Source: Octopus vulgaris
Lineage: Eukaryota
Assembly (NCBI GenBank): GCA_951406725.2
Contig: OX597840.1
Span: 12,710,001-12,774,000, forward strand
Reading direction: 5' to 3'
Length of the DNA stretch: 64,000 bases
Each line of letters starts with the position of its first letter. Position 1 is the stretch's first letter. Under the pieces are notes generated by a model, which saw nothing but the letters and a program-made list of their open reading frames with translations, ran no database searches and was not told where the DNA came from. The translations under genes were made by a program, and so were the position numbers. Shown here piece by piece: positions 10,583 to 63,800 of the stretch.

Positions 10583-10705
10583 ATGCCTGATGTAGTTCAT
10601 CCTGTCGTCATTGATAATGGATCACATACATGTAAAGTTGGTTTTGGAGGTGATCATGAACCAAGAATTGCCATTTCTTCAGATGCTGATTATCCCAGAG
10701 ATCAG
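10583..10705 (+). CDS. Divergent actin-like protein ActL-1, exon 1 (41 codons)
   Basis: MPDVVHPVVIDNGSHTCKVGFGGDHEPRIAISSDADYPRDQ carries the actin phosphate-1 loop DNGS..CK.GF. It ends CAG|GTACGT, the conserved phase-0 actin intron after codon 41. Confidence 0.92.
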
Positions 10706-14275: not shown

Positions 14276-15262
14276 AATGAAATGATTGGAGATGAACTCA
14301 AAGACTACAATGTTATAAATAAATTTGGATACAATACAAGTGTTCTTAACTTGAAGCATCCTATTGAACGTGGTGTCATTACCAACTGGGATGATATGGA
14401 GAAGATTTGGTTGCATGCATTCAAAGAGTTGAAAGTTGCACCTGCAGAAAGCTCTGTCTTGTTGACTGAGGCTGTTTTTAACCCCAAGGACAACAGAGAA
14501 AAGATGGCCGAAATTATGTTTGAAAAGTTTAACACTCATGCATTATGTATTGCTGATCAGGCTCCACTGTCGCTTTTTGCTTCTGGTCGTAACACAGGTA
14601 TGTCTGTGAATGTAGGTCATGGCATCACCCAAATTGTCCCTGTCTATAAAGGGTCAGTTATACGAGAAGCTGCTGTCCAGTGGGAGTTTGGTGGTGTGGA
14701 CATGACAGATTACCTTACGAGTATGTTGACTGAACGTGGTTATTCCTTTGACAGTCCTTCTCAAACAGAAACTGTCCGTAACATCAAAGAGATGTGTTGT
14801 TATGTTGCTCTAGACTTTGAACAGGAAATGCAGACTGCAGCCTCTGAGAAATATAAATTACCTGACAAGCAAGACATTACCATTGGCAATGAACGATTCC
14901 AAACCCCAGAACTTCTGTTCCAGCCAGGTTTAATTGATAAGGGCTCTGATGGCATTCATAAACTGATTTATAACTCAATCATAAAATGTGATAGGAATAT
15001 TAGAACACTACTATTTAAGAACATCATATTGTTTGGTGGCTCAACAATGTTCAAAGATGTTGTTTACCGCATGATAATTGAAATGAGATCTATTGTAGCA
15101 CCTACCACGAGTTTTCATATTGTTGCTCAACAATTTCGTGATAATTCTATGTGGAGGGGTGGTGCTCTGTTAACTTCTCTGTCTACCTTCATGGATCAGT
15201 GCATTCGCAGAGAAGAATATTATGAACATGGCTCATATATTCTCCATAGAAAGTATAGGTGA
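14276..15262 (+). CDS. Divergent actin-like protein ActL-1, exon 2 (spliced product 369 aa)
   Basis: Acceptor TTTTTGTATTTCAG|AAT is in frame with exon 1. Actin motifs [74 protein letters not shown] and HRK are present, with no internal stops. Confidence 0.93.
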   Translation, partial: NEMIGDELKDYNVINKFGYNTSVLNLKHPIERGVITNWDDMEKIWLHAFKELKVAPAESSVLLTEAVFNPKDNREKMAEIMFEKFNTHALCIADQAPLSLFASGRNTGMSVNVGHGITQIVPVYKGSVIREAAVQWEFGGVDMTDYLTSMLTERGYSFDSPSQTETVRNIKEMCCYVALDFEQEMQTAASEKYKLPDKQDITIGNERFQTPELLFQPGLIDKGSDGIHKLIYNSIIKCDRNIRTLLFKNIILFGGSTMFKDVVYRMIIEMRSIVAPTTSFHIVAQQFRDNSMWRGGALLTSLSTFMDQCIRREEYYEHGSYILHRKYR

Positions 15263-24350: not shown

Positions 24351-24967
24351 ACATATACTTACACACATATACAGAAGTTACCATACACAGACACACACAC
24401 ACACTCACTTGCTCTCCCTTCAGACATTGCAGTTGGGCTGTTATGATGAAACATTCTCTAAAGTGCATCAAAAACAACAGAACACTATTTTTATTAAATT
24501 CTTTATTAAAGTTCAGATCACACAAAAATCAACATTTTACTCAAATTTTATGGTTACATGGCAGTTTAGGACAACATTATCTTACCATTAATAACAAACT
24601 TATAATACTGAAAATAGGTTCCAGAGAGGAATATTGCTAACAAAATATGTTAGTACTAATTAAATCCATTTGTTACCAGATTTCTTTTAAGATACAAAAA
24701 TTATGAAGAATTTAGTCAAAATAACTTTGTCGTTATGAAACTGGCATTTCAAACATACATTAACGCAAATATTTCATGGAAGATTTTAATTGAAATCACT
24801 TTAAAACAGGCAGCTTTTATCATAGAATCAGGGGTTACTCTCAGGTGGTTAGTATTAAAAGGGTTAGTAGGATTTCATTAATATCTCTTATTAATTGTCA
24901 TTGAAGGGCTGAAAGTTAAACATTCAGCTTCCAGCTCTGGCCTATCACATTGTGCCATATATACATA

Positions 24968-25978
24968 CTAAGGACTCAAATTTTCCATTTTATGTATATG
25001 TTTCCTACAGACATGAGGTGCGTCAGAATTTTTATATTCTCCTTTTGTAATCCACAGATCATCAGTGGGAGGTCTACTAGCCAATCTAGAACCCCCAATC
25101 CATGGAGAGTATTCACGTTCTGGTAGAGCAATGATATTAACCTCTGTGTCAGGTGGTGCCAAGGCACTGATTTCCTTTTTCATACGCTCAACAAAACCTG
25201 GAAACATTGTTGAACCACCAGACAACACAATGTTGGCAAACAGATCTCTCCTAATTTCCTCATCACATTTCATGATTGAGTTATAAGTTATTTTATGAAC
25301 ACCATCAGAAGGGTTGAAAATAGCTTCTGGGACTCGAAATCGTTCATTGCCAATGGTAATGATTTGTCCATCAGATTGTTCATGTCTCTTTTCCAAAGCT
25401 TTAGAAGACTTTGCTGCCTGCATTTCTTGTTCAAAGTCTAGAGCAACATAGCAGAGCTTCTCTTTGATGACATTTAACGTTCTTTTCTCTGACATTGAGT
25501 CACCTAACATGTAGCCACGTTCAGTCAAGATATTTTTAAGGTTATCTCTCAAGGCAAGACCAGTAATATTCTCATGCTGGCAGAAAGTAGCTCCTTTTAT
25601 AGTTGAAGCTCCATAAATAGGGACAACTTGGGTGATACCATGGCCTACATTCACAGAAATACCTGTGACACGGCCAGAATCAAAGAGGGACAAAGCAGCT
25701 TGATTAGCCACCATAACTGCACGAACTTGAAACTTTTCAAACATAATTTCAACCATTTTCTCTCTGTTTTTTTCAGAGTTACCGACAGGCTCAGTCAACA
25801 AGACAGCATAGTCTTCGGCTGCAATGTTCAACTCGTCGAATGCATGTTGCCAGATCCTCTCCATATTACCCCAGTCAGTAATAAGACCATGTCCAATGGG
25901 ATTCTGCAAATTAGGCAAAGTTTTATCCTTTTCAGCTTTCTCTCCAACAAGGAATTCGGGGTTTGGTCCAAGATAACT
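24968..25978 (-). CDS. Divergent actin-like protein ActL-2, exon 2 (spliced product 374 aa)
   Basis: Acceptor TTATATTGCAG|AGT is in frame with exon 33356-33469. Motifs [77 protein letters not shown] and WIGGS are present; ORF intact. Confidence 0.93.
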
Positions 25979-26121
25979 CTGCAATATAATAAATGACAAT
26001 AAGAATTCTAGAAACTTAAGTCAATAAAATTTTTTACAAGATAGAAATAATAGAAAGAATTACACAAACAATGAAATTTTCATAATCAATCCTATAATAT
26101 CCTATAATTAATCCTATAAGC

Positions 26122-26469
26122 TCTATATATATAAAACTGAGAATGTGTGTGTGTGTGTCTGTCTGTCTGTCCGTCTGTTTGTCTGTGTGTTTCCCTAAAA
26201 CTTGAGAAATACACAAGCAATTTCATTCAAATTTTACACATGCCTTATTTAGGGTCCGGGGAGTGTCATTGCAAGAGACGGGCCTACAATTCCAGACTGT
26301 TATATATTTTGAGTATTGTTATCACTAGTGATATCAAGATATAACTTTGTATTTTGTATTTTATGTGTAGATGTATATATATAGAAGTACATGTAATATG
26401 TACACATATATATACACATATATACATGCACTAGAAATATGACCCAGCAACGACGGGTCATAATGCTAG
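26122..26469 (+). mobile_element. Non-autonomous Helitron in the ActL-2 intron (copy at 62217-62568)
   Basis: 5' TCTATATATATAAAA plus a TGTC tract; 3' hairpin TGACCCAGCAACGACGGGTCA then CTAG|T. Confidence 0.75.
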
Positions 26470-26662
26470 TATCCTATAATTAATCCTATAATTAATCGAA
26501 TCATATCCTATAATTAATACTATAATTGATCCTATAATATCCTATAATCAATCCTATAATATCCTATAATCAATCCTATAATATCCTATAATTAATCTTA
26601 TAATATCCTATAATTAATCCTTTAATATCTTGTAATTAATCCTTTAATATCCTATAATCATA

Positions 26663-27723
26663 TCTATAAAAAGGTGGATGTGTGTGCGTGTGTGTGTGTA
26701 CAGGATAGTAATTTATGCACATCCACAAATTAGCACGCATGTAGCTCAAATTTTAGGACATTTGTCAACACCCTATCTGGGTTTTGTCAACTTAATTTTT
26801 CTCCGAGGGATCCGTGAGTAGAGTAAATATCTAATTTCAGACATAGCTTTAAGCCACAAAAAAAATTGGACTTAGCTTTTTTGCTGGCGTCTAACAAAAA
26901 AATAAGATAAAGAAAAGTGGAAGAAGGAGGCAGAGAGTTTCATGGAAAAGACAAGGTGAGAGAGGGAGAGAGAGAGTAAGTGACTACATTCATAAAAAAA
27001 TAAAATGTAAAATGTTTTGTTTTTTATTTTTGAAAGGCACACTATATTTTATAATCATTGTATATATACTTTCTTACACAACAATTACAATATATTTATT
27101 TTAAATCATTTATTTATTTTAAATTGTTCATCTTTCTCCCCTCCTCTCTCTCTCACACATTGCTTTGGGTGCAAAAGAGTTTTGTCTTTATTTTACGCCG
27201 AGTAAAAAAGTGTTTTGGTGACAATCCATTTATTTAACAACAAAGAAACAAAGAGGTGAGTAACAATTTGTCAGTGAATTACACAATATAAATGGGTACA
27301 ATTTGCGAGGCTTCCACCACAACCCACTCCATTTCATGGACCACAAAAAGGGTTTTGAGGCCAGAGTAGTTGATTCCACGAAAAAAAACGATTTTTTTTC
27401 TTAGTGAAAATTGTGCGAGTGTTAATCTACAAATTTAACAACATTCATTTCTGTTTATCAACATATATGCATGCAAAAAACATGCAATTCGTCTACATAC
27501 GTACGTGTGTGTATGTGTGTTCGTGTCTGTTGCCCATATATATTTATATTATATTATATAAATATATATATAATATATATATAACATATATATATTGTAA
27601 CTAATTTCAACGAATTTCGCCCAAAATTTGACGTCTATATTACATAGTTTCATTTGAAATAAAGAACTTCATTAGCTTAATAATCATACCTTAATTCCGG
27701 GCAAGGCCAGGTTATACTGCTAG
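26663..27723 (+). mobile_element. Non-autonomous Helitron in the ActL-2 intron (copy at 62782-63780)
   Basis: A|TCTATAAAAAGG start; 3' CCGGGCAAGGCCAGG hairpin then CTAG|T; it splits the AT satellite. Confidence 0.75.
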
Positions 27724-30700
27724 TCAATACTATAATATCCTATAATCAATCACGTAATATCCTATAATCAATCCTATAAAATCCTATAATTAATCCTATA
27801 ATATCCTATAATTAATCCTATAAACAATCCTATAATATCCTATAATTAATCCTATAATATCCTATAAATGATCCTATATGATTGTATAGTCAATCCTATA
27901 ATACACTATAATCAATCCTATAATAGCCTATAATTAATCCTATGCTATCCTATAATCAATCCTATAATACCTTTTAATCAATCCTATAATATCCTATGAT
28001 TAATCCTATAATATCCTATAAGCGATCCTATAATATCCTATAACACCCTGTAATCAATCCTAAAATATGCTCTAATATCCTATAATTAATCCAATAACAT
28101 CCTATAATAAATCCTATAATATTCTATAATCAAACCTATAATATCTTATAATTAATCCTATAATATCCTATAATTAATCTTATATAATTCTATAATTAAT
28201 CCTATAATATCCTATAATCAATCTTATCAAATCCTATAATTAATCCTATAAAATTCTACAATTAATCCTATAATATCCTATAATGAATCCTAAAATATCC
28301 TATAATTAATTCTGTAATACCCTGTAATCAATCCTACAATATCCTATAATTAATCCTCTAATATCCTATAATTAATCTTATAATATCCTATAATCAATCC
28401 TATAATATCCTATAATTTATTTTATAATACCCTGTAATCAATCCAGCAAAATCCTATAATTAATCCTATCATATCCTATAATTAATGCTATTATATCCTA
28501 AAATTAATCTATAATATCCCATTATTAAGTAATCCTAAAAGACACTGTACTCAATACTAAAATATCCTATAATTAATCCTATAATATCCTATAATTATTC
28601 CTGTAATATCCTATAAATAGTCTTATAATATCCTATAATTAATCTAATAATAAATTCGATAATATCCTATAATTAATTCTATAATATCCTATAATTAATC
28701 TTATAATATCCAATGATTAATCCTGCAATATTTTTCATTAATCTTAAAATATCCTATAATTAATCCTATAAAATCCTATATTTTAATCGTATCATATCCT
28801 ATAATTAATCCTATAATATCCTATAATTAATCCTATAATATCAAATAATTATTCCTATAATATCATGTAATCAATCCTATAAAATCCTATAATTAATCCT
28901 ATAATATCCTATAATTGATCCTATATGATTGTATAGTCAATCCTATAATACACTATAATCAATCCTATAATAGCCTATAATTAATCCTATACTATCCTAT
29001 AATCAATCCTATAATACCTTTTAATCAATCCTATAATATCCTATGATTAATCCTATAATACCCTATAAGCGATCCTATAATATCCTATAACACCCTGTAA
29101 TCAATCCTATAATATCCTCTAATATCCTATAATTAATCCTATAACATCCTGTAATAAATCCTATAATATTCTATAATCAAACCTATAATATCTTATAATT
29201 AATCCTATAACTAATCTTATATAATTCTATAATTAATCCTATAATCAATCTTATCAAATCCTATAATTAATCCTATAAAATTCTACAATTAATCCTATAA
29301 TATCCTATAATGAATCCTAAAATATCCTATAATCAATTCTATAATACCCTGTAATCAATCCTACAATATCCTATAATTAATCCTCTAATATCCTATAATT
29401 AATCTTATAATATCTTATAATCAATCCTATAATATCCTATAATTAATTCTATAATACCCTGTAATCAATCCAACAAAATCCTATTATTAATCCTATCATA
29501 TCCTATAATTAATGCTATTATATCCTAAATTAATCTATAATATCCCATTATTAAGTAATCCTAAAAGACACTGTACTCAATCCTATAATATCCTATAATT
29601 AATCCTATAATATCCTATAATTAATTCTATGATATCCTATAATTAATCATATTATATCCTATAATTAATCCTATAAAATCCTATAATTATTCCTGTAATA
29701 TCCTATAAATAGTCTTATAATATCCTTATAATATCCAATAATAAATTCGATAATATCCTATAATTAATCCTATAATATCCTATAATTAATCTTATAATAT
29801 CCAATGATTAATCCTGTAATATTCTTTAATTAATCTTAAAATATCCTATAATTAATCTTATAGTATCCTATGATTAATCCTATAATATCCTATAATTAAT
29901 CCTATAAAATCCTATATTTTAATCGTATCATATCATATAATTAATCCTATAATATCATATAATTATTCCTATAATATCATATAATTAATCTTATAATGTC
30001 CTATAATTAATCCAATAATATCCTACAATTAATCTTATAATATCCTATAATTAATCCTATAATATCCGATAATTAATCTTATAATATCCTATTATTAATC
30101 CTATAATATCGTGTAATTAATCTTATAATATCCTAAAATTAATCCAATAATATCTTACAATTAATCTTATAATATCCTATAATTAATGCTATAATTAATC
30201 CTATAATATACTATAGTATATTATAGAATTAATTATAGCATTAATTATAGGATATTATAAGATTAATTGTAAGATATTATTGGATTAATTTTAGGATATT
30301 ATAAGATTAATTACACGATATTATAGGATTAATAATAGGATATTATAAGATTAATTATCGGATATTATAGGATTAATTATAGGATATTATAAGATTAATT
30401 GTAGGATATTATTGGATTAATTATAGGACATTATAAGATTAATTATATGATATTATAGGAATAATTATATGATATTATAGGATTAATTATATGATATGAT
30501 ACGATTAAAATATAGGATTTTATAGGATTAATTATAGGATATTATAGGATTAATCATAGGATACTATAAGATTAATTATAGGATATTTTAAGATTAATTA
30601 AAGAATATTACAGGATTAATCATTGGATATTATAAGATTAATTATAGGATATTATAGGATTAATTATAGGATATTATCGAATTTATTATTGGATATTAAT

Positions 30701-32300
30701 CCTACAATATCCTCTAATTAATCCTATAATATCCTATAATTAATCCTATAATACCCTGTTATCAATCCTACAATATCCTATAATTAATCCTATAATATCC
30801 TATAATAACCTATAATCAAAACCATAATATCCTATAATTAATCCTATAATACCCTGTAATAAATCCTACAATATCCTATAATTAATCCTATGATATCCTA
30901 AAATTAATCTATAATATCCCTACAATTAATCTTATAATATCCTATAAGTAAATCTATAATATCCTATAATATCCTATAATAAATCCTATAATATCCTATA
31001 ATTAATCTTATAATATCCTATAATTCATCCTATAATATCCTATTATTAATCATGTAATATCCTATAATTAATCCAATAATATCCCACAATTAATTTTATA
31101 ATATCCTATAATTAATCCTATAATTAATCCTATAATATGCTATAACTAATCCTATAATATCCTATAATTTATCCTATAATACCCTATAATTAATCCTATA
31201 ATATCCTATAATTATTCCTATAGTATACTATAATTATTCCTAAAATATCCTTTAATTAATCTTATAATATCCTATAATATCCTATAATTAATCCTTTAAT
31301 ATCCTACAATTAATCTTATAATATCCTATAATTAATCCTTTAATATCCTATAATTAATCTTATAACATCCTATAATTAATCATATGATATCCTATATTTA
31401 TTCTTATAATATCCTATAATTAATCCTATAATAACCAATAATTAATCTTATAATATCATATAGTTAATCTTATAATATCATATAACTAATCTTATAATAT
31501 CCTATAATTAATCCAATAATATCCTACAATTAATCTTATAATATCCTATAATTAATCTTATAATTAATCCTATAATATCCTATAATTAATCTTATAATAC
31601 CCTGTAATCAATCATGCAATATCCTGTAATTAATCCTATAATATCCTATGATTAATCTTATAATAACCTGTAATCAATACCACAATATCCTATAATTAAT
31701 CCTATAATACCTTGTGATCAATCCTACAATATCCTATAATTAATCCTATGATATCCTAAAATTAATCTATAATATCCCATTAATAATTAATCCTAAAAGA
31801 CCCTCTAATAAATCCTATAATATCCTATAATTAATCCTATAATATCCTATAATTAATCTTATAATATCCTATAATTAATCCTATAAAATCCTATTGTTAT
31901 TCCTATAATATCCAATAAATAATCTTAAAATGTCCTATAATTAAGTTTATAATATTCTATAATAAATCCTCTAATATCCTATAATTAATCTTATAATATC
32001 CTATAATTAATCCTATAATATCATATAATTAATCTTATAATATCCTATAATTAATCCTAATATCCTATAATTAATCCTATAATATCCTATAATTAATCCT
32101 ATAATATCCTATAATTAATCCTATAATATCCTATAATTAATCTTATAATACCCTGTAATCAATCCTACAAAATCCTATAAGTAATCCTATAATATCCTAT
32201 AATTAATCTTATAATATCCTATAATTAATCCTATAATATCGTGTAATTAATCTTATAATATCCTAAAATTAATCCAATAATATCTTACAATTAATCTAAT
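27724..32300. repeat. AT-rich satellite, ~22-bp unit ATCCTATAAT+ATCCTATAATTA, with a ~1.05-kb higher-order duplication and an internal inversion
   Basis: Direct reading. The diagnostic variant GATCCTATATGATTGTATAGTC occurs at 27870 and 28917. Further pieces lie at 26085-26120 and 26470-26660, and in copy B from about 62155. Confidence 0.95.
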
Positions 32301-32311
32301 ATGCATGTATG

Positions 32312-32361
<50 letters not shown>

Positions 32362-33355
32362 TGTATGTATGTATGTATATGTATATATATATGTATATGC
32401 ATATGTATATGTATATGTATATATATACATACATACACACACATATATATATATGTATATGTATATATATACATACATATATATATATATGTATATATAT
32501 GTATATATATATATATATATATACACATACATAGATATATACACATACATATATATATATACATATATAAATATTGAGGTTATAAGTGCTTATGTATATA
32601 TATATACACACACACACAGAAAGAAAGAGAGATATGCATATCTATATATATATGTGCGTTTGTATGCACGTGTATGTACATACATACATTCATAATATAG
32701 AGAAAAACGGAATAGTTCACCTAAAACTCATGCATGCCATGTGTTTGGCGGTTTTTAATTATTTAAACAAATCTACAGTATTTGTTGCATTTTGATTCGG
32801 AGTTCAGCACGCTACAACATGTATCATCAGCGGATTATATATCCGAAAAAGAAGACACTCTAAATGTAAGACACATAACGTGCTTACAGAATTGACCAAT
32901 GGCTTGCATTCATAAAGAACTATAAAGCTAAGTGCTGTAAGCATGCAGAACCATTCCATATATAGAGTGACCAGCCATATAATTAGCTTCCTATAAATAT
33001 ATATGTATATGTATATTTAATTTAAAATTTAATAAGGGTAGAAATTGATATTAATCAATTAAAACCAGTGGCCCAGCATATTAAAAAATCTGAAGATTAA
33101 AATATTATTGCTTACAAAATTTAAAGGACTGACCACTAAAAGTGGACGGTCAACATGCTAGATATATACGTCAAGTCGCTATTTTCCACAAAGAATATGT
33201 TCTCAAATAAGAACTCAGCACAAAACCAAAGCATTAAAAATATTTTATTTATTTGTGAACATATTTTTTGTGGAAAATAGCGATTTGACGTCTATATCTA
33301 GCATTTTTGAGTGGTCAGTCCTGTATGTATGTATATGTATATAGAGTCAACATAC

Positions 33356-33469
33356 CTGGAGATTGGGATAACCAACAAATGGAGGAATCACTTTTCTTTC
33401 TTCATAATCACCTCCAAAACCAGCTTTACACATATATGATCCATTATCAATAACAATGGAAGCAACCAT
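33356..33469 (-). CDS. ActL-2 exon 1 (38 codons; not in the ORF track)
   Basis: Minus strand [38 protein letters not shown] followed by the donor CAG|GTATGT, at the same intron position as ActL-1. Confidence 0.92.
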
Positions 33470-35886: not shown

Positions 35887-38827
35887 ATGATACAAAGGAT
35901 TAATACCAATTTCTCTCCCAAGAACATACCACTTCACACCGAAAATGCATATATGGCGACCCTTATCCATAGAACTACGGATTTCATTAGAAGGATTAGA
36001 TGGGCTGCCTACCATTTTGACAACAAAGAAAAATGCAACTCTGATAGGAACCAGGACGAAATGATATACAGAAAAAGTTTTTAAAGTAGAAGAAACCCAC
36101 CTCGAAATTACACTTTGGAAAATTTTAAGAAGGACTTAATCGACTTTATTAGCAGTATCAAATTTAAAAAGCATAGGACCATTTCGAACACTCACTTGAA
36201 TAGTTTAAAAGAGTTCATAAATTCACTTAGGAATGAGGACAGTCTAATTGTACCTGCTGATAAAATCGGCAATTGGTATAAATTAGATTACAATAATTAC
36301 AAATTACTAATCATGAAGGAATTACATAAAAAAATTCAAGATCGCATCTACTGAAAACCTAAAGGAAATTAACTTAAAAATAAAGGAAGAAATGACTAAA
36401 CTGGATCTACTAGATAGGACTGAACCTCTCAAACCTCAGGAGCCATAAAAAAGGATTCCCAGAAAACAGGAGTAAGATTAATATGTCCAACTAAATCAGA
36501 TATAGGCAGACTTAGCAAAACTATTCTGGACACAGTGAATCCACGGATTAAACCCCATATTCCACTCAATTTATGGATTAATACCGATGATGTTCTAGAG
36601 TGGTTTAACTCCATTACTGACAGATGTAATTATTCTTTTATACAGTTCGACATAGCAAATTACTATGCTAGCATCTCCCCTATATTACTCAATAAGTCCC
36701 TTATATATGCCTGTAGCCTTTCGCTCGTAGATAGAGAAAAAATTGATATTATACTCTTGGCTAGGAAGACAATAATCGAATTTGATGGTAAACTTTGGAC
36801 TAGATCCGATACCACTGATAGCTTCGATGTGGCCATGGGCTCGAGCGATTCAGCTCAGGTAACTGACTTGGTCGGGGCCTACCTGCTTAAGAAGCTGTTC
36901 TCGGAGGTACCAGATCTTCAGGGGGGTCTATATAGGGATGATGCACTTTTCATATACCCCACTAATAATAAGAGTAAACTAGAAAGAATTAGAAGAAAGA
37001 TTAGGCAATTCTTTAAATCATTTAATCTAAAACTAGAGTTTATGACTAGTACTAAGATAGTTGATTTTTTTAGATGTTACATTAGATATAGACAAAGGCC
37101 TTCACTACCCCTATAGGAAACTGGAAGAAACCACTAGATATATTAACACATCATCCAATCACCCGCCCTGTATAGTTGATACCACAGTCCAAGCTGTCTC
37201 TGACAGACTGAGTTATCATCAAACAATAATATCTTCAGTGATTACGCGCATCACTATAACCAAGCCCTCTCTAGTGCTGGGCACCCCCAGAACATACGTC
37301 ATCAATAAAACTCCATCACATAAACGAACTAAGGATTCCAGAACCAATCATTTAAATTTAAATTTAAAATTAAATGAAATTAGACTAAATAGTTGCAATA
37401 AAAACGCAGATTCAACTAATATAAATTCAAACAGGACTTAGAAACAAACAGATAGAAATCGCACCGATAGAAATTTACTTAATGAAAACCCTACCGATAG
37501 GAGTATCACAGATAATATTAGAAGACACAAAAGTAAAAACGGTAGATTACGTAAATATATATGGTATAACATACCATATAATATAGCGGTTAAGGGTAAA
37601 TTATGCAAAAAAATATTTTCAATAATATCTATTAATTTTCCACCCACTCATAAATATAGTAGTATCTTTTGAAATAAAACTATTAGGATATCATACTCAA
37701 CTCTACCTAACATGAGCTGCCTCATAGCTAAACATAATAAAACTAAAATTAAAATAGCTAGTTTAAGAGTAAATAATAATGATCAATCAAACCCCAACAG
37801 TCCAGGAGTGAACATTGGTAGTAACCAAACTAATAACTATAGCCAAGGCATTATCCCTATAGCTTTGATACCTAACCGCCAAGCTGACAACTTAGAGATA
37901 ACTGATAGTAGTTCCCTAAACAGCGAATTTAACGTTGATAATAACTATAGCAACATTAATAATAGTATCAGTAAATATAATAACAATAATAATCTGGATA
38001 GCAATAGCAACATTGAAATAGCTAGTAATAGCACCCATTACAACAATGGAGATAATATTATACCCAATAATTATATAACTAATGAAGATAATGCTACTAC
38101 TACTATTAATGTGATAACTCAGCCCACAACGAACAATAATTGTGAATTTAATTTTACTAATTGTAATAGCAATATAACTAGCAATAATAGAGATGTAGGT
38201 GATAGATTTAATATCAGTACTAGCAGTAGAAGAAATATAGGTAGGAAAAACTTAAATAGCACCAATAGAGATAATAACAATAACAATAGCGAAGACGTTA
38301 GCGGAGCTTCTATCTACCATAATAGTAACCTTGACAGCAACCATACCGAAATTATCCGTCCGCGGATTAGTAACAGACAGCCGGAAAATGGTAATTTCGG
38401 ATGCAATTGTCTGGATGCAACAGCTTGTCCCTTACGTGGAAATTTCTTAGCAAAAAACGTAGTTTATTCCTGTGAAGTAATTACTGAAACGAACACTCTT
38501 ACATACATTGGGTGCTCATCCATCTGGAAATCTAGGTTCTATAACCACCGGTCGTCATTTAGGCTCAAACATAAGGCTAGTAGTACTTCTTTATTAAGTA
38601 AGACTTGGGAACTTAGTGACAAGAATATCGAATTTAACCTTAGACGGTCCATTATTGGATTGGCTGCGGCTTATAAAAATGATAGAACAGGTTGCCAGCT
38701 ATGTTGCATAGAACTTCTAAAAATCATTAGATTCAAAGATAAAAACAAGCTAATTAATAAAAGATCTGAATTCAAACCATCGTGTATGCATAAATTAACT
38801 AAAACCTTTAAATATTATAATCCTTAA
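35887..38827 (+). mobile_element. Near full-length Penelope-like retroelement (RT plus C-terminal GIY-YIG), inactivated
   Basis: SPKNIP...RIRW N-terminus, PADK, FDI..YY.SI, AMGS, LYRDD, FLDV, SNHPP, then CNC....CPL.G...VVY...YIG...RFYNH..SF...CxLC..E...CxH. One nonsense codon (36082-36084) and several frameshifts. Confidence 0.9.
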
Positions 38828-44874: not shown

Positions 44875-46100
44875 TGAATAGTGGGTAGCAATTCCTATAC
44901 CCATCGATTGACGTAGATTTTGCAGTGGAGAAGTGTGTGGAGATGATCAACGAGAGCCAGGTGGAGTTTTATAATGTCAACATAGAAGAACTGGGCCTCC
45001 TACTTAGACTGACATGTAATAATGAATACTTAGATAAACATAATCTTAGTAGTTTCTGCCCCAGTAGAGGTTTAAGAGGTAGACCGCCTACAATTACTTC
45101 TATGGCTAGGAAGACACATATAGAAAGATGGCGCGGATGGACCAGAGCCATACGGAGCCCCGCAAATGTCCATCAGGTAAAGAAAATGATCGCACATGCA
45201 CTAGGAGCTAGTATAAGAGTTACCCTAAAAGGCCACACGTTTAAATTTCATAATAAAATATGTGCCCAGGACGAGGGGGCAGCCATCAGTGTTAGTATCG
45301 CTGGTGATGTGGCCAACCTTTTCATGGTATGGTGGGACAGAAGGCTTAAAGAACGCCTACTGCAGAAATCCATACTCGTAAACATGTACTCTCGCTATGT
45401 TGATGATATCAACATAGTGGTAAAGGCACCCCCACAAGAGAGTAATGTTGATATAGTAATAGAAACTAATACTATGGAGAGCATCCAGCAAATAGCTAAC
45501 TCCATCCACCAGAGTATTAAGGTCACAATAGACTACCCCACTAAACACCCCAACCATAGACTACCAGTACTAGACACTGAACTCTGGCTAGAAATTGTGA
45601 ATAATAAAACCCAAATCCTTCATTCATACTATGCCAAACCTATGGCCTCAAAATACCTGATCCACCGGAACTCAGCCATTGCGGGCAATGCCAAATTCAA
45701 TATTTTGATGGCAGACCTCGTCAGAATAATGAGAAATGTGTCACGCATGTCCGAGCCTACAGAGTTAAAGAGACACATACAATATTTCATTCACCGCATG
45801 CAGTTCTCAGGTTACAGCCATAAAGAAAGGATCAGAGTATAAAAAGGAGCCATGAAGAAATTTGATAATATATTATGTAATGATAGGAATGGGATTTGCC
45901 CACTCTATAGGAACAAGTCATGGAACACTATAGAAAGGACAAAAAAGAAAATAGGGAAGGCCAACTCTTGGTATGATAGCCATAAATACCAGAGTGTCAT
46001 GTTCGTTGACACCACCCCTGGAGGTGAACTGGCGTACCGCTTTAGAAGGACCCTAGACGAACTTAAGCTAAGAATTAAGGTTGTTGGAAAGCCAGGCAAA
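44875..46100 (+). mobile_element. Penelope-like RT fragment (different family from 35887)
   Basis: LYPSID, GAAI...AG.VANLFM..WD, YSRYVDD, LPVLD..LW, YY.KPM.S; in-frame TAA at 45840-45842; truncated at both ends. Confidence 0.8.
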
Positions 46101-51406: not shown

Positions 51407-52262
51407 TCATTTTGTACAATGGATGAATGAACTAGATTCGTAATATTTTCTTTTAGACTTCATACCTTTGAAGGAAAGCTCAGAAACCAAACTAGAACCA
51501 CCAATCTATGGAGAGTATTCACGTTCTGGTAGAGCAATGACATTAACCTCTGTGTCAGGTGGTGCCAAGGCACTGATTTCCTTTTTCATACGCTCAACAA
51601 AACCTGGAAACATTGTTGAATGCCCGGACAACACGATGTTGGCAAAAAGACCTTTTCGGAGTTCCTCATCACATTTTCATGATTGAGTTATATGTTGTTT
51701 TATGAAGACCATCATATCCCATTCCGAGTAAACTTGGCTTGAGCATAGCTTCTGGGACACGGAATCGTTCATTTCCAATGGTAATGAATTGTCCATCAGG
51801 TAGTTCATAACTCATTTCCAAAGATGAAGAAGAGGCTGTTGTCTCCATTTGCTGTTCAAATTCTAGAGCAATGCTTTTTAACCTTTTTGCTGGAGCGGAA
51901 CCCCAAGGAAACATTCCACTGGCTCGGGGAACCCCTGCGCAATAATTTAATAGTCTTATGCATACATATTTGCACAGGAGAATTAAAAATTACTGCCGCT
52001 TTTAGCAGTTTTGTAACTTCTTGTGGAATCCCTGAACTGTATTGGCGGAACCCTGGTTGAAAACCACTGGTCTAGAGCAACATAGCAGAACTTTTCTTTG
52101 ATGTCACAGACAATTTCCCTCTGAGAAGCTGCGTCAAAGCAATAGCCACGTTCCATCAAGATCCTCATAAAGTCAAGTTGAGACCAGCAAGATCCTGATG
52201 GATTGCAGTATTTCGTGTAATTAAAGCTTCACAGACAGGGACAACTTGGGTGATACTATGAC
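51407..52262 (-). pseudogene. Actin-like pseudogene (3' two-thirds of exon 2)
   Basis: HSITQVVPV...LMERGY.F....[16 protein letters not shown] / [31 protein letters not shown]. Lesions: TGG->TAG at 51506-51508, a +1 frameshift near 51675, a frameshift near 52170, a MITE insertion and loss of the 5' part. Confidence 0.92.
51869..52069. mobile_element. hAT-Charlie-type MITE (201 bp)
   Basis: 15-bp imperfect TIRs CAATGCTTTTTAACC / GGTTGAAAACCACTG; 8-bp TSD TTCTAGAG (51861-51868) and GTCTAGAG (52070-52077), matching the Charlie NTCTAGAN target preference. Confidence 0.88.
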
Positions 52263-52849
52263 AACTGATGCTGGTGTGTTTACGTCCCCATAACCTAGCG
52301 GGTTACATTAATGGTACACATGACTGAGGAGTACTCAGCCACTTATCAAATACAATGAACAGATCTGACATTGCTATAAGTCGATGTAAAATGTATTTGT
52401 GTGTATGTGTGTGTATGTGGTGTTACATGTGTGTTTCTTTGTGTCTGTGTTTTCTCCCCACAATATAAATATTTTTCTATTTTTTTCCTTTACAAGTTTC
52501 AGCCATTAGACTGCGACCATGCTGGAGCACTGTCTAAAAGAAATTTTAGTTGAATGTATCAAACCCAGTACTTATTTTTTAAAAGCATGGTAATCATTCT
52601 GTCGGTTTCTTTTGCCAAACCACTAAGTTACAATAATAAAGACAGTTGATTTGTAAACAAAGAATAAAATACTGTTTGAGGCTTAGCTAGGATGAGTTAT
52701 CTTCCTTAAATCAGTTCAGTTGGCAAACCTTATGAACTTAAGTGCTAAACAGGTAATCTCTGCCTTTAGGCTGTTTCCAGTCAGCAAGGATTCTTTTTGA
52801 CTCTAATCAATGAATGGGGAACCCCATGCCTGCAGCAGGTAGCATTTGA

Positions 52850-60800: not shown

Positions 60801-63800
60801 AGATACAAAAATTATGAAGAATTTAGTCAAAGTAACTTTCTCGTTATGAAACTGGCATTTCAAACATACATTAACGCAAATATTTCATGGAAGATTTTAA
60901 TTGAAATCACTTTAAAACAGGCAGCTTTTATCATAGAATCAGGGTTTACTCTCAGGTGGGTTAGTATTAAAAGGGTTAGTAGGATTTCATTAATATCTCT
61001 TATTAATTGTCATTGTAGGGGTGAAAGGGGTCTCCCCATATGTACATACTAATTTCTCAAATTTACTATTATGTTTCCTACAGACATAAGATACGCCAGA
61101 TTCTTTATATTCTTCTTTTGTAATCCACAGATCATCAGTGGGAGGTCTACTAGCCAATCTAGAACCCCCAATCCATGGAGAGTATTCACGTTCTGGTAGA
61201 GCAATGATATTAACCTCTGTGTCAGGTGGTGCCAAGGCACTGATTTCCTTTTTCATACGCTCAACAAAACCTGGAAACATTGTTGAACCACCAGACAACA
61301 CAATGTTGGCAAACAGATCTCTCCTAATTTCCACATCACATTTCATGATTGAGTTATAAGTCATCTTATGAACACCATCAGAAGGGTTGAAAATAGCTTC
61401 TGGGACTCGAAATCGTTCATTGCCAATGGTAATGATTTGTCCATCAGATTGTTCATGACTCTTTTCCAAAGCTTTAGAAGATTTTGCTGCCTGCATTTCT
61501 TGTTCAAAGTCTAGAGCAACATAGCAGAGCTTCTCTTTGATGTCATTTAACGTTCTGTTGTCTGACATTGAGTCACCAAACATGTAGCCACGTTCAGTCA
61601 AGATACTTCTAAGGTTATCTCTCAAGGCAAGACCAGTAATATTCTGATGCTGACAGAAAGTAGCTCCTTTTATAGTTGAAGCTCCATAAATAGGGACAAC
61701 TTGGGTGATACCATGGCCTACATTCACAGAAATACCTGTGACACGGCCAGAATCAAAGAGGGACAAAGCAGCTTGATTAGCCACCATTACTGCACGAACT
61801 TGAAACTTTTCAAACATAATTTCAACCATATTCGCCATGTGTGTTTCAGAGTTACCAACAGGCTCAGTCAACAAGACAGCATAGTCTTTGGCTGCAACGT
61901 TCAATTCGTTGAATGTATGTCGCCAGATCCTCTCCATATTACCCCAGTCAGTAATAATACCATGTTTAATGGGATTCTGCAAATTAAGGACAGTTTTATC
62001 CTTTTCAGCTTTCTCTCCAACAAGGATTTCGATTTTTGGTCCAGAATTTTTCTGCAATATAATAAATGACAATAAGAATTCTAGAAACTTAAGTCAATAA
62101 AATTTTTTACAAGATAGAAATGATAGAAAGAATTACACAAACAATGAAATTTTCATAATCAATCCTATAATATCCTATAATCAATCCTATAATATCCTAT
62201 AATTAATCCTCTAATATCTATATATATAAAACTGAGAATGTGTGTGTGTCTGTCTGTCTGTCTGTCTGTCCGTCCGTCTGTCTGTGTGTTTCCCTAAAAC
62301 TTGAGAACTACACAACCAATTTCATTCAAATTTTACACATGCCTTACGTAGGGTCCGGGGAGTGTCATTGCAAGAGACGAGCCTACAATTCCAGTCTGTT
62401 ATATATTTTGAGTATTGTTATCACTAGTGATATCAAGATATAACTTTGTATTTTGTATTTTATGTGTAGATGTATATATATAGAAGTACATGTAATATGT
62501 ACACATATATATACACATATATACATGCACTAGAACTATGACCCGGCAACGACGGGTCATAATGCTAGTATGCTATAATTAATCTTATAATATCCTACAA
62601 TTAATCGCATCATATCCTATAATTAATCCTATAATATCCTATAATTGATCCTATAATATCCTATAATCAATCCTATAATATCTTATAATTAATCCTATAA
62701 TATCCTATAATTAATCTTATAATATCCTATAATTAATCCTTTAATATCCTGTAATTAATCCTTTAATATCCTATAATCATATCTATAAAAGGGTGGATGT
62801 GTGTGCGTGTGTGTGTGTACGTGATAGTAATTTATGCACGTCCACAAATTAGCATGCATGTAGCTCAAATGTTAGGACATTTGTCAACACCCTATCTGGG
62901 TTTTGTCAACTTAATTTTTTCTCCGAGGGATCCGTGGGTAGCGTAAATATCTAATTTCAGACATAGCTTTAAGCCACAAAAAATATCGGACTTAGCTTTT
63001 TTGCCAGCGTCTAACAAAAAAATAAGATAAAGAAAAGTGGAAGAAGGAGGCAGAGAGTTTCATGGGAAAGACAAGGTGAGAGAGGGAGAGAGAGAGTAAG
63101 TGACCACATTCATAAAAAATGGAATGTAAAATGTTTTGTTTTTTGTTTTTGAAATGCACACTATATGTTATAGTCATCGTATATATACTTTCTTACACAA
63201 CAATTACAATATATTTATTTTAAATCATTTATTTATTTTAAATCGTTCATCTTTCTCCCTGCTCTCTCTCTCTCTCTCACACACATTACTTTAGGTGCGA
63301 AAGAGTTTTGTTTTTATTTTATGCCAAGAAAACAAGTGTCTTGTTGACAATCCATATATTTAACAACAAAGAAACAAAGAGGTGAGTAACAATTTGTCAG
63401 TGAATTACACAATATAAATGGGTACAATTTGCGAGGCTTCCACCACAACCCACTCCGTTTCACAGACCACAAAAAGGGTTTTGAGGCCAATAATTTTTCC
63501 ATTCATTTCTGTTTATCAACATGTATGCGTGCAAAAAACATGCAATTGGTCTACATACGTACGTGTGTATATGTGTGTTCGTGTCTGTTGCCCATATGTA
63601 TTTATATTATATTATATATATATATATATAATATATATATAACATATATATATTGTAACTAATTTCAACGGATTTCGCCCAAATTTGACGTCTATATTAC
63701 ATAGTTTCAGTTGAAATAAAGAACTTGATTAGCTTAATAATCATACCTTAATCCCGGGCAAGGCCAGGTTATACTGCTAGTCAATACTATAATATCCTAT

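Follow-up and report, generated by a model that had tools for sequence, protein, structure and literature searches.

In the actin filament, the two strands are held together by a loop known as the hydrophobic plug, and the locus described here raises the question of what an actin that has lost it can still do. The locus lies in a 64,000-nucleotide stretch of the Octopus vulgaris genome (contig OX597840.1, positions 12,710,001 to 12,774,000; hereafter the window). Three regions of the window code for actin-like proteins, and an actin-like pseudogene is also present. Our preferred answer, to which we assign a probability of about 55%, is that the plug-less ActL-2 and ActL-4 are young tandem actin paralogues with a predicted actin fold that likely form no filaments and likely act as monomers, binding a partner via a fast-changing outer domain.

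Actin-like genes of the window

ActL-2 consists of two exons with an open frame of 374 codons. The features of the window are as follows.

33356..33469, minus strand: coding part of ActL-2 exon 1 (38 codons), matched by the ends of spliced contigs
25979..33355, minus strand: ActL-2 intron, phase-0 GT-AG, at actin position 41/42
24968..25978, minus strand: ActL-2 exon 2, 336 codons plus stop
25301..25318, minus strand: plug deletion junction of ActL-2; 18 nt for residues 265-270 (or 266-271) absent
24511..24967, minus strand: ActL-2 3' untranslated region, to the end of transcript-like contigs, which begin at 24511-24516
60990..62051, minus strand: ActL-4 exon 2, 353 codons; plug deletion as in ActL-2, C-terminal tail different
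10583..10705, plus strand: ActL-1 exon 1, coding part
14276..15262, plus strand: ActL-1 exon 2, a cluster paralogue with full plug and equally eroded filament contacts
51410..52356, minus strand: actin-like pseudogene, disrupted by stops, a frameshift and a roughly 180-bp insertion; full plug

The likely exon 1 of ActL-4 lies beyond the window (G000:C27:12795620-12795810). In the sequencing runs X1, X2 and X7, exon 2 and the 3' untranslated region of ActL-2 are each contained in one contig with a single gap, located inside the untranslated region. A loose contig end at 25981 corresponds to the 3' end of exon 1 in X2, X19 and X20, from three studies, joining exon 1 to exon 2 as spliced, while contigs of X15 and X17 read on into the intron. 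We call ActL-2 transcribed because of this splice joint, as the runs carry no RNA label on record. A retrocopy as origin of the spliced contigs was rejected, no intronless copy being present among 33 exon-2 and 15 exon-1 matches in the own genome (G000), and the open frame together with the spliced contigs led us to discard the idea that ActL-2 is a pseudogene. Existing annotations for O. vulgaris and O. sinensis list its product as hypothetical or actin-like. The window differs from runs X1/X2 at four coding positions (25893, 25505-25506, 25003) in three codons, all of them replacements.

The ActL-2 intron carries a 22-bp AT-rich satellite (27726-32296, ~206 copies, partly in inverted orientation). 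Two further open reading frames of the window (37712-38827 and 44943-45842) resemble remnants of a retroelement endonuclease and reverse transcriptase, presumably akin to Penelope-like elements; a Pfam search with both returned no match.

The plug deletion

An in-frame loss of six plug codons in ActL-2 and ActL-4 had been proposed from the sequence-only reading, and both protein and codon alignments confirm it. The junction in ActL-2 falls between 25310 and 25309 (or 25307 and 25306) on the minus strand and the same junction in ActL-4 between 61383 and 61382. Ser codons stand on both sides of the gap (TCT in each case in the conventional copy L006), which leaves two possible placements, residues 265-270 and residues 266-271; residues 266-270 are missing under either. 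Comparison with solved actins by phmmer located the six-residue gap at the plug in three of three alignments among those listed, between P264 and the G273 region. In the codon alignment, ActL-2 shows an 18-nt in-frame gap relative to all other octopus actins included; the exception is L005, which lacks 3 nt of its own. The accompanying statements of the same reading also held: plug length is full in ActL-1 (14276-15262) and in the pseudogene (51410-52356), and the D-loop of ActL-2 is two residues short, exon 2 having 9 residues ahead of the YVG-equivalent versus 11 in actin. ActL-2 differs from actin by further indels that the sequence-only reading had missed, namely an N-terminus shorter by ~4 residues, the loss of Y91, two residues added after residue 175, one added near 200 and an 8-residue C-terminal extension. 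In exon 1, the acidic N-terminus is missing and G15 of phosphate loop 1 is replaced by Tyr.

An assembly artefact can be dismissed, as contigs of the independent runs X1, X2, X7, X15 and X17 span the junction without gaps. Two independent deletions were likewise rejected: ActL-2 and ActL-4 belong to a single clade and go back to the same duplicated unit, so they reflect one deletion event.

Both protein sets in which we counted plug indels consist of top hits to a gapped query and may therefore favour gapped sequences: 183 of 186 stored proteins covered the plug, of which 168 had no net indel and nine had a six-residue gap (eight redundant octopus entries and Dictyostelium Act25), and 144 of 145 further cluster representatives covered it, 124 without indel and three, all unnamed proteins, with a loss of at least three residues (-3, -6, -8). 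Judged by these alignments, divergent actins lose the plug rarely, but have done so more than once.

Filament contacts, fold and nucleotide site

As a measure of filament competence, we took 34 residues that PMC7247010 lists as filament contacts and counted how many are retained. ActL-2 keeps 10 of them (24 of 34 differ), while three ActL-1-type proteins with full plug retain 9/34 each and the L005 type 16/34. The conventional control L006 has 29/31 and L010, a divergent octopus actin, 23/31, matching its overall identity. P0177, a protein of O. bimaculoides, has a full plug yet none of the eight D-loop donor residues. The rest of the ActL-2 protein is 55% identical, which differs from the contact sites at p = 0.004, but this 'rest' includes buried residues and biases the test, and we therefore rely on the paralogue controls. 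The earlier suggestion that ActL-2 and ActL-4 are non-polymerising thus survives as likely, although on wider grounds than the plug, given that 24/34 contacts differ and full-plug relatives are equally eroded. The plug deletion is probably not the cause of non-polymerisation.

Published work on other actins urges caution here. Leishmania actin, with altered plug and D-loop, polymerises and co-polymerises with muscle actin, its barbed-end groove being conserved (PMC9200798). The yeast plug mutant L266D has a cold-sensitive defect only (PMC2119884), and the plug itself moves and extends less far than in the first models (PMC3038201).

The losses in ActL-2 are spread over both filament ends. The pointed-end donor (D-loop) keeps 1/8 residues, the barbed-end acceptor 1/8 and the subdomain 3 loops 2/7, while the subdomain 4 loop retains 3/4 and the second lateral contact 2/4. 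Capping, the second role proposed from the sequence-only reading, needs one intact end, and these counts make it less likely. In a broader version, ActL-2 would weakly join conventional filaments and terminate, cap or destabilise them; its origin from a conventional actin, its kept fold and the retention of E241, D244, G245, M283, P322, E195 and R256 are compatible with this, and divergent actins can co-polymerise (PMC9200798). With neither end intact, the plug gone, K113E, and an 8-residue tail standing in place of the F375 end, we nevertheless regard it as quite unlikely.

The cleft between subdomains 1 and 3 is the site used by most actin-binding proteins. ActL-2 retains 3/11 cleft positions, and has Arg and Pro at 345-351. 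The third proposed role, in which ActL-2 would divert ordinary actin-binding proteins as a decoy, is weakened by this. A monomeric role is more likely than either capping or a decoy function because both filament ends and the cleft are eroded. Likewise, since most other filament contacts are altered besides the plug, ActL-2 is likely a single unit and not a filament, cap or motor track.

The fold itself appears to be kept. ActL-2 is 50-56% identical to conventional actins and has a Pfam Actin domain and a predicted actin fold. An AlphaFold2 model of the paralogue P0002 (55-row alignment) reached a mean pLDDT of 84.5, although the alignment consists mostly of conventional actins and the model therefore leans towards them. 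The helices flanking the plug are retained in the model and joined by a short loop, and its low-confidence spots (39-41 and 174-177) are the other two indel sites. Foldseek gave TM scores of 0.82-0.91 to 50 actin chains among the matches listed. Of the nucleotide-binding and hydrolysis residues, 16/23 are retained. D11, S14, K18, Q137, K213, E214 and G302 are kept, while D154N, D157H, H161Q, G15Y and K336E are changes. The first four of these changes affect sites tied to hydrolysis. ActL-2 may thus still bind nucleotide, with hydrolysis probably altered.

Origin of the cluster and timing of the deletion

Most of the 33 exon-2 matches in the own genome lie within a 300-kb cluster on C27. Besides four ActL-2-type exon-2 copies and their sister L005, it contains seven genes of the ActL-1 type, of which one is broken, and four fragments of pseudogenes. 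This array (G000:C27:12.58-12.88 Mb; L001-L005, L011, L013-L018, L020-L023) comprises at least 12 actin-like genes. The plug deletion is present in all four ActL-2-type copies, one of which (L002) carries a stop. At L035 (G000:C27:12852894-12853079) lies another ActL-2-type exon 1, the fifth, in which a deletion shifts the frame; exon 1 is thus present in five copies and exon 2 in four. L005 (G000:C27:12580287-12581225) has a one-residue plug deletion and H73R, and two near-identical exon-1 copies lie upstream of it (12585290 and 12588865). The ActL-1-type clade (window 14276-15262; L011, L013-L018) is marked by the loss of five residues around 232-236 (subdomain 4), by G245K and by a remodelled C-terminal half, and is also conserved in O. 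sinensis. The pseudogene of the window is a mosaic, its 5' part being L005-like and its 3' part nearly identical to ActL-2, which points to gene conversion in the array; it was dropped as an outgroup for this reason. Elsewhere in the genome, divergent actin-like genes occur at L010 (C8), L012 (C17) and L019 (C8), and L010, which has no intron at 41/42, may be a retrocopy.

In a nucleotide tree of 17 exon-2 sequences, built without L018, L019, the pseudogenes and canonical Arps, the cluster is monophyletic (bootstrap 100) and falls within the octopus actins, beside L012, L006 and L007. The 41/42 intron site is common to ActL-2 and the conventional octopus actins of the same genome. Tree position and common intron site show that the cluster derived from an octopus conventional actin. 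ActL-2 is thus not orthologous to a canonical Arp, nesting among octopus conventional actins and having their intron in a tree that covered octopus sequences without canonical Arps.

The six-residue gap is also present in three O. sinensis proteins, a species in which intact 374-residue proteins are present, and in contigs from organisms D and E. Two O. bimaculoides proteins, P0175 and P0177, group with ActL-2 (bootstrap 100), although their models are incomplete and the branching that would single out one of them as the direct orthologue has a bootstrap of 45. Both were found only by a region-limited search, as the search with L005 as query was dominated by conventional actins. P0177 has the short N-terminus and C-terminal tail of ActL-2, but a full plug and a full-length D-loop; the plug of P0175 is one residue short. 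A contig of X14 has an intermediate indel pattern similar to P0175, as read from 21 gap letters and a net gain of nine bases. The D-loop of P0177 is strongly basic and by eye resembles a nuclear localisation signal. With O. bimaculoides orthologues whose plug is full or one residue short, the six-residue loss is recent, and since P0177 lacks the plug deletion, the two-residue D-loop deletion and the two-residue insertion after 175, these indels, all recent, arose on one branch. Close relatives of ActL-2 were found only in Octopus.

Selection and divergence of the copies

Omega was 0.009 in conventional octopus actins and 0.78 over ten intact cluster genes (below 1 at p = 0.007), with pairwise values across the cluster of 0.6-0.9. 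The four ActL-2-type copies gave an omega of 1.77 (p = 0.055) and the three intact ones 1.5 (p = 0.20). In a split chosen post hoc, with the data already seen, subdomains 1-2 of the ActL-2-type copies reached 2.6 (p = 0.013; 2.4 with p = 0.042 without the broken copy) versus 0.92 in subdomains 3-4. The four copies carry 73 replacement versus 11 silent variant alleles, with replacement to silent ratios of 17:0 in subdomain 2, 14:0 in the C-terminal part of subdomain 1 and 6:4 in subdomain 3. Between ActL-2 and ActL-4, 42/756 replacement sites differ (5.6%) versus 163/5062 flanking non-coding sites (3.2%, p = 0.002), with uneven divergence of the flanks (intron 4.5%, downstream 2.4%), and 7/219 silent sites differ (3.2%). 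Among 23 listed of 30 coding differences between an X7 contig, which may be a paralogue, and the window, 17 replacement and three silent codons were found. Diversifying selection on the ActL-2-type copies is suggested, not proven, by these comparisons, as the gene conversion evident in the array can distort selection tests.

Could the copies simply be redundant duplicates drifting near-neutrally, the deletion being tolerated decay in a protein that does little? The pairwise omega values across the cluster and a four-copy omega indistinguishable from 1 would fit, as would the stop in one of four copies, the frameshifted fifth exon 1 and the four pseudogene fragments beside the units. For plausible dS, however, the neutral expectation on the ActL-2-type stem is 5.6-13.9 stops, with none in three of four copies, and all indels on this stem are in frame, so the frame has been maintained over a long stem. 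The intact O. sinensis proteins, the spliced contigs and the small change in subdomain 3 (6 replacement, 4 silent) against subdomain 2 (17, 0) also speak against drift, which we consider unlikely while granting it some weight.

The pattern of tandem expansion, birth and death of copies and replacement excess on subdomains 1-2 might alternatively reflect an arms race, in which ActL-2 is a decoy or escape variant against actin-targeting parasites or microbes and the outer domain diversifies in response. Such a decoy should mimic the binding surfaces of actin, but the cleft retains 3/11 positions, and germline conflict yields the same pattern; this explanation seems improbable to us.

An equally improbable, more ambitious proposal is that in octopuses of the vulgaris group a plug-less actin under positive selection had its filament core rebuilt into a new assembly by the changes in plug (-6), D-loop (-2) and 175-loop (+2), and that the cluster series (full, -1, -6) directly tests the role of the plug. 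The closely related idea that the three indels were co-selected as a new interface, with ActL-2 forming its own non-standard polymer or oligomer, is if anything a shade more doubtful. Their joint absence from P0177 and origin on one branch would be expected, and residues 39, 173, 270 and 286 belong to one network in the filament core (PMC9200798). Yet the same loops tolerate indels best once filament contacts are gone, and the copies vary at the start of the D-loop, where a surface for self-assembly should be constant.

For the monomeric actin that we favour, the following course of events seems plausible. The ancestor would have left the filament first, because contacts are eroded cluster-wide, full-plug members included. 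Plug, D-loop and neighbouring loops could then have become shorter or longer. Slippage between two Ser codons may have removed the 18 nt, a loss that would have been tolerated and fixed in the lineage of O. vulgaris and O. sinensis.

Comparison with known systems

The plug deletion is a single recent event with precedent and not a targeted signature. The putative actin-25 of Dictyostelium discoideum (Q54HF0, P0078) is a divergent paralogue with a six-residue gap at the same plug site. It represents an independent event, and Act25 keeps 19/34 contacts and has a D-loop insertion. In the available part of the Dictyostelium actinome paper, Act25 is mentioned only in a table of export signals (PMC2441452). 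Two studies of divergent protist actins (Leishmania, Plasmodium, Toxoplasma, Paramecium; PMC9200798, PMC1852557) describe changes concentrated in the plug, D-loop and subdomain 4, as in ActL-2. Leishmania actin keeps the plug, with a one-residue insertion, and the barbed-end groove, and polymerises (PMC9200798), whereas ActL-2 lacks both.

Arp11 is an ancient canonical Arp, while ActL-2 branched off from actin recently and is altered on both faces. Arp11 is placed on the end of a filament and has accordingly kept one face for binding. As the dynactin pointed-end subunit it has an actin fold and extends no filament (PMC8047447), as is likely for ActL-2 too.

Young non-canonical actins have been described mainly from flies and mammals. 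By sequence and gene structure, the ActL-2 family is most like such young non-canonical Arps, with Arp53D as the example, and is not a conventional actin, a canonical capping Arp or a pseudogene. We found no description of the octopus actin-like cluster in the literature outside subscription papers, and the O. sinensis accessions likewise returned no papers; this octopus family is apparently previously undescribed. It combines rapid evolution (dN 0.25 from ActL-2 to the sister gene L005) with retention across species, being intact in O. vulgaris and O. sinensis and having orthologues in O. bimaculoides. Drosophila Arp53D and the young testis Arps of Drosophila and mammals are likewise young, lineage-specific, actin-derived, fast-evolving and retained; they show signs of positive selection (PMC8291977), which for the octopus copies is suggested. 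In contrast to Arp53D, the octopus family has an independent origin and comprises at least a dozen genes in tandem instead of one. ActL-2 has a short N-terminus and a C-terminal tail where Arp53D has a 40-residue N-terminal extension, and its plug is deleted. Germline expression is the usual hallmark of those Arps; a search of the O. sinensis gonad study (PMC11202624), whose gene identifiers differ, gave no match. By analogy only, a tissue-restricted role may be supposed for ActL-2, with the male germline as first guess.

The octopus array would thus be a third animal case, with copies still diversifying, and offers an opening to study why duplicates of actin abandon the filament. The naturally occurring range of plugs in close orthologues (full length, one residue short, six residues short) provides ready reagents for measuring the share of the plug in filament stability, a test that many other changes confound. 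What the array has in common with Arp53D is the course taken: a young duplicate of a conventional actin, evolving fast and retained across species.
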